A stretch of 35,154 bases of DNA from a virus (lineage: Duplodnaviria; Heunggongvirae; Uroviricota; Caudoviricetes), in the IMG/VR virus record IMGVR_UViG_2913152634_000005; one strand, written 5' to 3'. The position numbers and the translations under genes were made by a program. Positions within the stretch are counted from its first letter, which is position 1. Each line of letters opens with the position of its first letter. This document shows, piece after piece, positions 9,574 to 10,565 of the stretch. Below the pieces are notes generated by a model. That model worked only from the letters and a program-made list of their open reading frames with translations. It was not told the DNA's origin and ran no database searches.

Positions 9574-9759
9574 ATGACTAATTCAGTTGATGTTCAAACC
9601 CGTAGAGAAGAATTTGAGCAAGGATATCGAGATGGCTTTCGTTCGGTTCAGGGCAATGTTTTACCCCCAAAAGCTCCAAGAATTGTACTTGAAACGGGTT
9701 CAAAACCTTACGATCAAGGCCATGCTTACGGGGTCAGAGATGCTGGAGGCAAGCGGTAG
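9574..9759 (+). CDS. hypothetical small protein, first gene of a two-gene cargo operon
   Basis: 61-aa ORF with strong RBS taaggag 7 nt before the ATG; followed 44 nt later by the Abi_C gene. Confidence 0.5.
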   Translation: MTNSVDVQTRREEFEQGYRDGFRSVQGNVLPPKAPRIVLETGSKPYDQGHAYGVRDAGGKR

Positions 9760-9803
9760 CTATCACTGGTATAGTCCATAGAAAAAGTGTAAGGGGTCCT
9801 AAA

Positions 9804-10565
9804 ATGGATAATTTTCTCAATGAGTTTTCGTCGGATCAGGAACGAGCTAGACATTTAGAGAACTTATTAATTAAGGTTGCTCGAGGAGGACCTCGAGATA
9901 ATAGTGAAAATTATATTTCTCTTAGATCGTACTTTATACAAAACTCTGTATTAAAACTGTTGCTTCCTGCATTCGTAAGAGAAAACAGAAGCCTAAAAAA
10001 ATTTTGGGGATTCATACAGCAGAAGTTCCCAACATATAAAGAGCGCGAGTACTTCATCTCAACTGAATTCACACCGTTATTCGATTATTTCGAAGAGAAT
10101 CATGCTACGCCTTCGGATGTTCACATAACTGACGGATTAAGAAGCTATGATGAGTGTGGCGTGAATGAAGCTTGGGCAAAAGCTCTAGACAGAAGAAACA
10201 ACGATCCTGAAGGGGCTATTACAGCATCTAGAACATTGCTTGAGACGGTTTGTAAACACATTCTTGATGATTTAAGTATTACTTATGATAGAAATCTAGA
10301 CATGAGTGAACTTTATAAACTAACATCCAAAGCACTTAATTTGGCTCCAGATCAGCACGGAGAACAGATTTTTAAGCAGATACTTAAAGGTTGCTCATCT
10401 GTGGTAAATGGCCTTGGCAATTTACGTAATAAATATGGCGATGCTCATGGCATAGGGAAAAAACCAATAAAACCTGCTGATCGACATGCTCTTTTAGCTG
10501 TTAATCTTGCAGGAAGCATGTCAGTTTTCCTCATTCAAACATGGCAAAACTTGTCAAACAAATAA
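9804..10565 (+). CDS. Abi_C/HEPN-domain abortive-infection-like protein
   Basis: 253 aa; C-terminal signature GLGNLRNKYGDAHG...HALLAVNLAGSMSVFL (R-x6-H HEPN motif typical of the Abi_C family); AT-rich; RBS aagggg. Confidence 0.72.
   Translation: MDNFLNEFSSDQERARHLENLLIKVARGGPRDNSENYISLRSYFIQNSVLKLLLPAFVRENRSLKKFWGFIQQKFPTYKEREYFISTEFTPLFDYFEENHATPSDVHITDGLRSYDECGVNEAWAKALDRRNNDPEGAITASRTLLETVCKHILDDLSITYDRNLDMSELYKLTSKALNLAPDQHGEQIFKQILKGCSSVVNGLGNLRNKYGDAHGIGKKPIKPADRHALLAVNLAGSMSVFLIQTWQNLSNK

Follow-up and report, generated by a model that had tools for sequence, protein, structure and literature searches.

A stretch of 35,154 nucleotides from a Caudoviricetes record in IMG/VR (IMGVR_UViG_2913152634_000005; this whole stretch is referred to below as the window) holds two neighbouring genes at the integrase-distal edge of a phage satellite, which itself lies inside a lambdoid prophage. 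The first gene (9574..9759, + strand) encodes a protein of 61 amino acids, and the second (9804..10565, + strand) encodes a 253-amino-acid protein with an N-terminal helical module and a C-terminal Abi_C/HEPN domain, to which the Prokaryotic Genome Annotation Pipeline had already given the name 'abortive infection family protein'. Neither is a chance open reading frame (ORF), since homologues exist for each. Both have exactly the coordinates given in an original prediction made from the sequence of the window, and the other features that it reported around them were also recovered. Specifically, the DNA is AT-rich (GC content 0.39 at 9501-10500, against 0.55-0.58 in the prophage DNA to the left), and strong ribosome-binding sites precede the start codons, with AAGGAG (9561-9566) located 7 nucleotides before the ATG of the small gene and AAGGGG (9790-9795) located 8 nucleotides before that of the large one. 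The left attachment junction falls at 9452|9453, so the pair starts about 120 nucleotides inside the element, and the proposal that these genes are accessory cargo at the edge of a mobile element is borne out by this junction and by the base composition.

Only 44 nucleotides separate the two genes on their common strand, and our consensus scan called no intrinsic terminator, including between them. This arrangement suggests that the two genes are probably co-transcribed. A perfect 12-bp inverted repeat (10619..10659, + strand) begins 53 nucleotides after the stop codon of the 253-amino-acid gene. It is not followed by a U tract, but its predicted RNA fold is stable (z = -3.2), and from its sequence and position it is likely to form a hairpin at the end of the transcript. 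A scan against Rfam (E <= 1) revealed no structured RNA in 9000-21500.

The Abi_C/HEPN protein and its N-terminal module

By every test that we ran, all of them based on sequence profiles or on a predicted structure, the 253-amino-acid protein is a member of the Pfam Abi_C family and of the HEPN superfamily. The Abi_C model (PF14355) aligns with residues 169-244 over profile positions 2-82 of 83, with a score of 83 bits where the gathering threshold is 24 (E=1.7e-23), and the same model is matched by all 63 of the homologues that we aligned. The AbiJ model of PADLOC (PDLC02347) covers residues 129-245 with its profile positions 160-275 of 281 (E=2.4e-22), whereas a PHROGs family of 'unknown function', phrog_23253, matches the protein over its full length (E=1.4e-91). 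NCBIfam gave no match. Single-sequence and profile searches yielded no link to the PDB, and the sole profile match, to a designed repeat protein (E=2.7e-4), is meaningless.

The HEPN domain (residues ~120-250; 10161..10553, + strand) carries the R-x(4-6)-H motif that is characteristic of its superfamily. The signature LRNKYGDAHG (residues 207-216), which had been singled out as R-x6-H in the original prediction, includes the catalytic-type motif R208-N-K-Y-G-D-A-H215 (10425..10448, + strand), in which the codon of R208 occupies 10425-10427 and that of H215 occupies 10446-10448. In all 63 aligned homologues, residues R208, N209, D213 and H215 are unchanged. The absence of a HEPN fold on structure prediction had been proposed as a way to disprove the assignment, but an AlphaFold2 model of the protein (mean pLDDT, the confidence score of the program, of 84.8) presents the all-alpha, up-and-down helical bundle expected of a HEPN domain.

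Searches for relatives returned 4416 homologues, the best non-identical one with E=2.7e-137. Among the best 120 of these 4416, all are about 250 amino acids long, align from end to end and are at least 53% identical to the query. These sequences derive from Enterobacterales as well as from Anaerolineae and Methylococcaceae. The alignment of 63 sequences has 46 invariant columns, and many of the invariant residues are in the N-terminal part of the protein. We found no paper on the proteins themselves (WP_001358138, WP_001021158 and WP_021559942) or on phrog_23253.

The N-terminal domain (residues 1-110; 9804..10133, + strand) is predicted with confidence to be a helical bundle, and we consider it a putative sensor or regulatory module. 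The original prediction had recognised nothing in the first ~130 residues or in the 61-amino-acid protein. The N-terminal ~125 residues match no model in Pfam, NCBIfam or PADLOC, and the AbiJ_NTD models of Pfam match none of the 63 aligned members even at E<=10. A phmmer search of 1.84 billion cluster representatives with residues 1-110 gave 669 matches at E<=1e-3, and the longer of these place the module N-terminal to various other domains. These include TIR_2 domains (P0151, P0231, P0247, P0217), TIR domains of the CAP12/Pycsar type (P0153, P0244, P0238, P0270), CHAT proteases (P0197, P0219, P0260), HEAT repeats (P0196) and further Abi_C proteins that have N-terminal extensions (P0220, P0263). 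In a plasmid collection, the full architecture is present in 18 records and the HEPN half alone in ~190, while one 'nucleotide-binding protein' of Photobacterium has only the N-terminal module.

The fusion of this module to TIR or CHAT domains elsewhere fits the design of a single-chain sensor-effector protein. Exchange of AbiJ N-terminal domains among effectors has been described previously (Anantharaman et al. 2013, PMC3710099), and these domains were read as sensors that perhaps also restrain the toxin. One of them, AbiJ-NTD5, resembles the module described here in its size of ~100 amino acids, its helical nature and its fusions to TIR, a likeness that we have drawn by description only. We did not find the sharing of this particular module with TIR and CHAT effectors in the literature consulted.

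A variable cargo slot in a helper-embedded satellite

The region of the element is identical to a locus of Escherichia coli RM14723, and its layout can be read from the RefSeq annotation of that strain. An island of 11.4 kb divides the lambda-E-like major capsid gene of a lambdoid prophage, the C-terminal part of which ends at ~9452 and the N-terminal part of which starts at ~20859. Homology to an uninterrupted E gene (L016) stops at 9452 and restarts at 20859 with an overlap of 8 bp, which defines a left integration core TGCTTGGG (9445..9452), at the junction of the 3' part of capsid gene E with the satellite, and a right core TGCTTCGG (20859-20866). Both junctions were located by this alignment to the intact gene, as a search for direct repeats did not report the 8-bp core. 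Immediately inside the left core is a conserved satellite end, or attP arm (9453..9500), that is common to sister satellites whose cargo differs.

At the other side of the two genes is a satellite cos region (11320..11471, - strand) that comprises cosQ, cosN and the start of cosB. This sequence shares 92% identity with the region that immediately precedes Nu1 in phage YDC107_1. It also aligns with the cos of the helper prophage around it, and these 150 bp are present in 3656 of 5426 complete E. coli genomes. Given its position upstream of Nu1 in lambdoid phages and its alignment to the cos of the prophage, we conclude that the satellite has a cos of its own. The split capsid gene E, the 8-bp core, the gene content and the cos together indicate from sequence that the carrier is a helper-embedded phage-inducible chromosomal island (PICI) of the published capE type. 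The founding example of such islands, 11capE, is inserted at this very site of capsid gene E, shares the four-zone organisation and is presumed to have a cos site (Tommasini, Mageeney and Williams 2023, PMC10111431). The text of that report does not discuss cargo or defence genes (the words 'cargo' and 'abortive' are absent from it, and 'defense' appears solely among the references).

The core of this satellite (AlpA, decoration and capsid genes) was found in 365 E. coli genomes, and seven relatives were compared at their left ends. They resemble the window from the flanking prophage DNA across the att arm as far as 9486-9500, and again from the cos region onwards. For example, two sister satellites (L014 and L015) are 95% identical to the window up to 9486 and 9500, respectively, and then diverge. 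In strain VCSW7, the slot holds the same two-gene pair. In SCU-101, M12 and STEC711, it holds another 253-amino-acid 'abortive infection family protein' (WP_001021158) in the same orientation, which is 57% identical to the protein described here and has no small ORF beside it. The slot of 20Ec-P-124 contains two unrelated hypothetical genes, and four other sister satellites have no annotated gene there. Because the content between the conserved att arm (to about 9500) and the cos (from 11320) varies in this manner among sisters, we regard this interval as a cargo hotspot of the kind recognized in PICIs.

Hotspots of this type have precedents. Immune hotspots have been reported at the 5' and 3' ends of PICIs (He et al. 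2024, PMC11364771, citing Fillol-Salom et al. 2022), and satellite P4 has an immune hotspot as well (Rousset et al. 2022). As with the end cargo of Gram-negative PICIs and the hotspot of P4, a compact AT-rich accessory gene is situated between cos and the att end, and its content varies between satellites that are otherwise nearly identical. The difference is in the carrier, which in the present case is a helper-embedded PICI inside a late gene of a prophage. We did not find a cargo hotspot in helper-embedded PICIs in the literature consulted.

We also considered whether an active gene might occupy the 750 bp between the 253-amino-acid gene and the cos, and rejected this candidate. The interval contains a decayed second lambda-I-like tail assembly gene (10671..11112, - strand) in the form of short broken ORFs, and blastn found 10741-10925 to be 67-75% identical to annotated 'tail assembly protein' genes.

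Beyond the cos, the rest of the island (11558..20866, - strand) was assigned from the RefSeq annotation of RM14723, from Pfam and from an intact copy in E. albertii. Its genes are, in order, tail assembly I, a K fragment, AlpA, head decoration, major capsid, single-stranded DNA-binding protein, a frameshifted primase, an Icd-like gene, a + strand pair encoding HicB-like and 241-amino-acid proteins, a helix-turn-helix gene and a frameshifted integrase, followed by the right core. The cargo genes had been described as lying on the opposite strand from the rest of the element. This holds for most of the island, but not for the second + strand pair.

That second pair marks another variable slot of the satellite (18241-19185, + strand), between the Icd-like gene and the integrase-proximal helix-turn-helix gene. 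With a GC content of 33%, it encodes a 64-amino-acid protein of the HicB family (Pfam E=5.5e-5) followed by the 241-amino-acid protein, for which neither Pfam nor PADLOC gave a match. In sister satellites, the occupant of the same slot is a 'putative phage abortive infection protein' in SCU-101 and a SWIM zinc-finger protein in strain E2. The 241-amino-acid protein is also a candidate for a defence function, albeit one that is less well annotated than the Abi_C gene.

Several additional observations concern the state and history of this satellite. The lambda tail-assembly I gene and K fragment (11558-12310, - strand), which lie between AlpA and cos, are missing from the VCSW7 satellite, which is otherwise 99.5% identical, and they illustrate the 'late gene capture' that has been reported in such satellites. 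The 12-nucleotide cosN of the satellite, GGGCGGAAGGCG (11426-11437, - strand), differs at 5 of 12 positions from that of the helper prophage, GGGCGGCGACCT (27225-27236, - strand), which is of the lambda type. It is the same as the cosN of phage YDC107_1, and the surrounding cos sequence is conserved. On this sequence comparison, the satellite may be matched to a helper terminase other than that of the present prophage.

Both the primase (15243-16993, - strand) and the integrase (19461-20695, - strand) of the satellite are frameshifted in this strain, and the tail tube gene of the prophage is interrupted by an IS3 element (prophage tail genes near 5400-6650). Thus, neither satellite nor helper seems able to move in this strain, whereas both cargo genes remain intact. 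The primase is intact in the E. albertii and VCSW7 copies, and the integrase is also intact in that of E. albertii. In the left part of the window (1-4700), the type III effector genes nleC and nleB2 and a gene for a DUF1076 protein adjoin the tail fibre gene and lom in the RM14723 annotation, which identifies the host prophage as a lambdoid phage of the effector-carrying, exchangeable-effector-locus type.

Distribution of the Abi_C gene and of its small neighbour

At the DNA level, the Abi_C subfamily is detectable in 46 of the 5426 complete E. coli genomes. All six of the E. coli contexts that we inspected are integrase-distal satellite ends, five of them in capE helper-embedded PICIs and one in a fis-integrated satellite of the capsid-forming type (SCU-125). 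In Enterobacter and Klebsiella oxytoca, the gene is located directly downstream of fis at a satellite end, close to a lambda-I-like gene and in the opposite orientation. On two metagenome contigs it adjoins the integrase, the arrangement that a circular or concatemeric form would produce. We did not find this subfamily described as recurrent satellite cargo in the literature consulted.

Given this distribution, it seems appropriate to question whether the gene serves the satellite itself, for example by interfering with reproduction of the helper, by adjusting the timing of lysis or packaging, or by punishing cells that lose the satellite, as an addiction module does. The position of every inspected E. 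coli copy at a satellite end is consistent with such a role, as are the lambda-I-like tail assembly gene close by in fis-integrated satellites (of which a remnant is present here) and the near absence of the subfamily from sequenced phages, among which there are only 3 partial matches. However, the close homologues of Lonsdalea, Methylococcaceae and Anaerolineae are chromosomal, with no satellite genes across the 12 kb that we inspected, and other homologues are on plasmids or near a restriction-modification system. In Serratia, for instance, the gene is ~2 kb from a type I restriction-modification system with an AAA_13 gene. Moreover, the gene is antisense to the transcription units of the satellite, and sister satellites do without it. 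We therefore judge a satellite-specific role to be unlikely. In Lonsdalea, the homologue is found right after fis with no satellite genes within 6 kb downstream, and this gene may be the last remnant of a lost satellite.

Another explanation would be that the protein is a housekeeping or stress-response RNase that has nothing to do with phages and merely happens to be mobile. The high conservation of the protein across phyla, seen in the 46 invariant columns noted above, and the presence of the gene alone among metabolic genes in Methylococcaceae and Anaerolineae would be in keeping with such a function. Against it stand the very patchy occurrence in E. coli, the AT-rich, foreign-looking DNA, the location at hotspots of mobile elements, and an N-terminal module in common with TIR and CHAT effectors that are typical of conflict systems. 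On balance, we regard this explanation as very improbable.

The original prediction had raised the possibility that the two genes form a two-component variant of an abortive-infection module. The 61-amino-acid gene is certainly a genuine gene. Its product has a homologue of equal length and 69% identity (L008), and comparison of the two genes gives a ratio of nonsynonymous to synonymous substitution (dN/dS) of 0.16 (pS 0.66, pN 0.22), which indicates purifying selection. Residues 14-27 (FEQGYRDGFRSVQG) and 46-59 (YDQGHAYGVRDAGG) are two copies of the motif [FY]-[ED]-Q-G-[YH]-x-x-G-[FV]-R-x-x-x-G, and both copies are kept in the 69% homologue. It is also very rare, with only 3 clusters in 5.8 billion proteins, even with a profile search, and tblastn found no further relatives in plasmid or phage collections. 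No family model in Pfam, PADLOC, PHROGs or NCBIfam matches the protein, including those for MNT or other antitoxin families.

The small gene is found beside Abi_C in one satellite lineage only, represented by 4 E. coli genomes, one E. albertii genome and one metagenome contig. Its 69% homologue is on a plasmid-like contig (L008/L009) with genes for ParA, a ribbon-helix-helix protein and a DpnII/MboI-type protein, and with no Abi_C gene nearby. Based on gene calls and tblastn, the small gene is absent from all 12 of the other Abi_C contexts that we examined, namely Lonsdalea (79% identity of the Abi_C protein), metagenome contigs (80%, 78% and 73%), two Serratia, Enterobacter, two Klebsiella oxytoca, the SCU-101-type E. 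coli allele, Methylococcaceae and Anaerolineae. Homologues in all of these lineages, and in four metagenome contexts, therefore exist without the partner gene, and no other neighbouring gene is conserved across the contexts of the family. From this absence, and from the lack of conserved neighbours, we conclude that the pair is a lineage-specific juxtaposition rather than a two-component system of the family, and the two-component proposal is not supported.

These same data bear on a more specific model, in which the 61-amino-acid protein restrains a HEPN toxin, as in a toxin-antitoxin system or a two-component abortive infection system, and in which its loss or titration on infection frees the RNase. 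The small ORF does lie a short distance upstream on the same strand with a strong ribosome-binding site and no intervening terminator, all five genomes with this allele retain both genes, the small gene is under purifying selection, and small antitoxins commonly accompany HEPN toxins (PMC3710099). However, the small gene is missing from the 12 other contexts, among them relatives of 73-80% identity and the sister allele that occupies this slot in satellites of the same type. Likewise, the only other homologue of the small protein has no Abi_C gene to restrain, and the scarcity of the protein and its lack of resemblance to MNT or any other antitoxin family also argue against this model, which we consider distinctly unlikely. 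The 61-amino-acid gene is thus real, separate and very rare, and it is not required by the Abi_C family, although its product may have a local modulatory role.

Proposed function and meaning

Taken together, we believe that the 253-amino-acid gene is a stand-alone, single-chain defence gene of the Abi_C (AbiJ-like HEPN) abortive-infection type, carried as cargo in the integrase-distal slot of a helper-embedded PICI. We assign this interpretation a probability of roughly 0.6. Under such a mechanism, the gene would be transcribed from its own promoter, antisense to the transcription of the satellite and of the late phage genes, and an antisense promoter of its own would permit expression in the lysogen. 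The N-terminal helical module would keep the HEPN RNase inactive until a phage-derived cue appears. The HEPN domain, which is probably a dimer or a higher oligomer as in other HEPN nucleases, would then cut cellular RNA (tRNA, rRNA or mRNA), thereby arresting growth of the infected cell and blocking competitor phages. The helper phage of the satellite would be expected not to trigger the system.

Several points weigh against this proposal. The match to lactococcal AbiJ is restricted to the C-terminal half of the protein. A consensus scan found no promoter above the shuffled background (3 promoter-like sites versus 5.3 expected), and none of the sites is upstream of the pair. In Methylococcaceae and Anaerolineae, the gene resides among housekeeping genes, and the 53-57% identity of the proteins of these bacteria to that of E. 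coli is unusually high for a defence gene. Furthermore, this copy of the satellite is decayed in its integrase and primase, so selection on its cargo should not be assumed.

A more elaborate version of the defence hypothesis would assign roles to both unrecognised components. The N-terminal module would be a reused sensor for competitor lambdoid phages, and the 61-amino-acid protein would be a lineage-specific modulator. If so, the module may detect a component of competitor lambdoid phages that the satellite's own helpers have evolved not to display, satellites may carry the module repeatedly for this purpose, and the small add-on may tune or gate the system, for example to protect the helper from self-targeting. 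We view this combination as rather unlikely.

The proposed single-protein defence has validated counterparts. AbiJ (Abi-859) of Lactococcus lactis, which together with the Pfam Abi_C family is the closest in kind, is a single-gene defence whose mechanism is unknown, and mutations that allow escape map to a phage ssDNA-annealing protein (PMC13064643). Like AbiJ, the 253-amino-acid protein is encoded by a single gene on mobile DNA and combines a variable N-terminal domain with a C-terminal Abi_C HEPN domain bearing R-x(4-6)-H. The similarity does not extend over the full length, however, as the N-terminal ~100 amino acids show no match to the N-terminal half of AbiJ or to the AbiJ_NTD models of Pfam, and the host and carrier are an enterobacterium and a satellite rather than a lactococcal plasmid.

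Taranis, from an integron cassette of Vibrio cholerae, is a validated single-protein Abi_C defence (bioRxiv 10.1101/2024.07.02.601686) that has been reported near integrases in Klebsiella and Burkholderia. Compared by description, it likewise joins an Abi_C domain to a divergent N-terminal domain, but its N terminus has been called distantly AbiJ_NTD5-like, whereas our protein matches no NTD model of Pfam. HepS, from the Gifsy-1 prophage of Salmonella, is a validated single-protein HEPN defence (PMC13043305) that is triggered by the tail tip protein J and targets tRNA anticodon loops. It has no detectable sequence similarity to the 253-amino-acid protein and no separate N-terminal module of this kind. 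HEPN-MNT toxin-antitoxin systems of types II and VII differ in that they include an MNT nucleotidyltransferase, and no such partner is encoded here.

The type of element and the kind of cargo position described here are already published, and this kind of protein, being Abi_C/AbiJ-like, is already catalogued. Current concepts remain unchanged, and if our favoured interpretation as ordinary anti-phage cargo is correct, then a known pattern has been filled in. Should the gene prove protective, the single-protein HEPN defences of the AbiJ-like kind would gain a further subfamily that has yet to be characterised. This subfamily is large, as it has more than 4000 homologues and its N-terminal module occurs in 669 representative clusters. 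The two natural alleles, which are 57% identical and occupy the same slot in near-identical satellites, constitute a clean test system. In addition, the existence of natural variants with and without the 61-amino-acid gene, together with the presence of the module on TIR and CHAT effectors, would allow domain swaps to establish what the module senses. More broadly, protection by this gene would mean that helper-embedded PICIs carry an immune hotspot, as do ordinary PICIs and P4.

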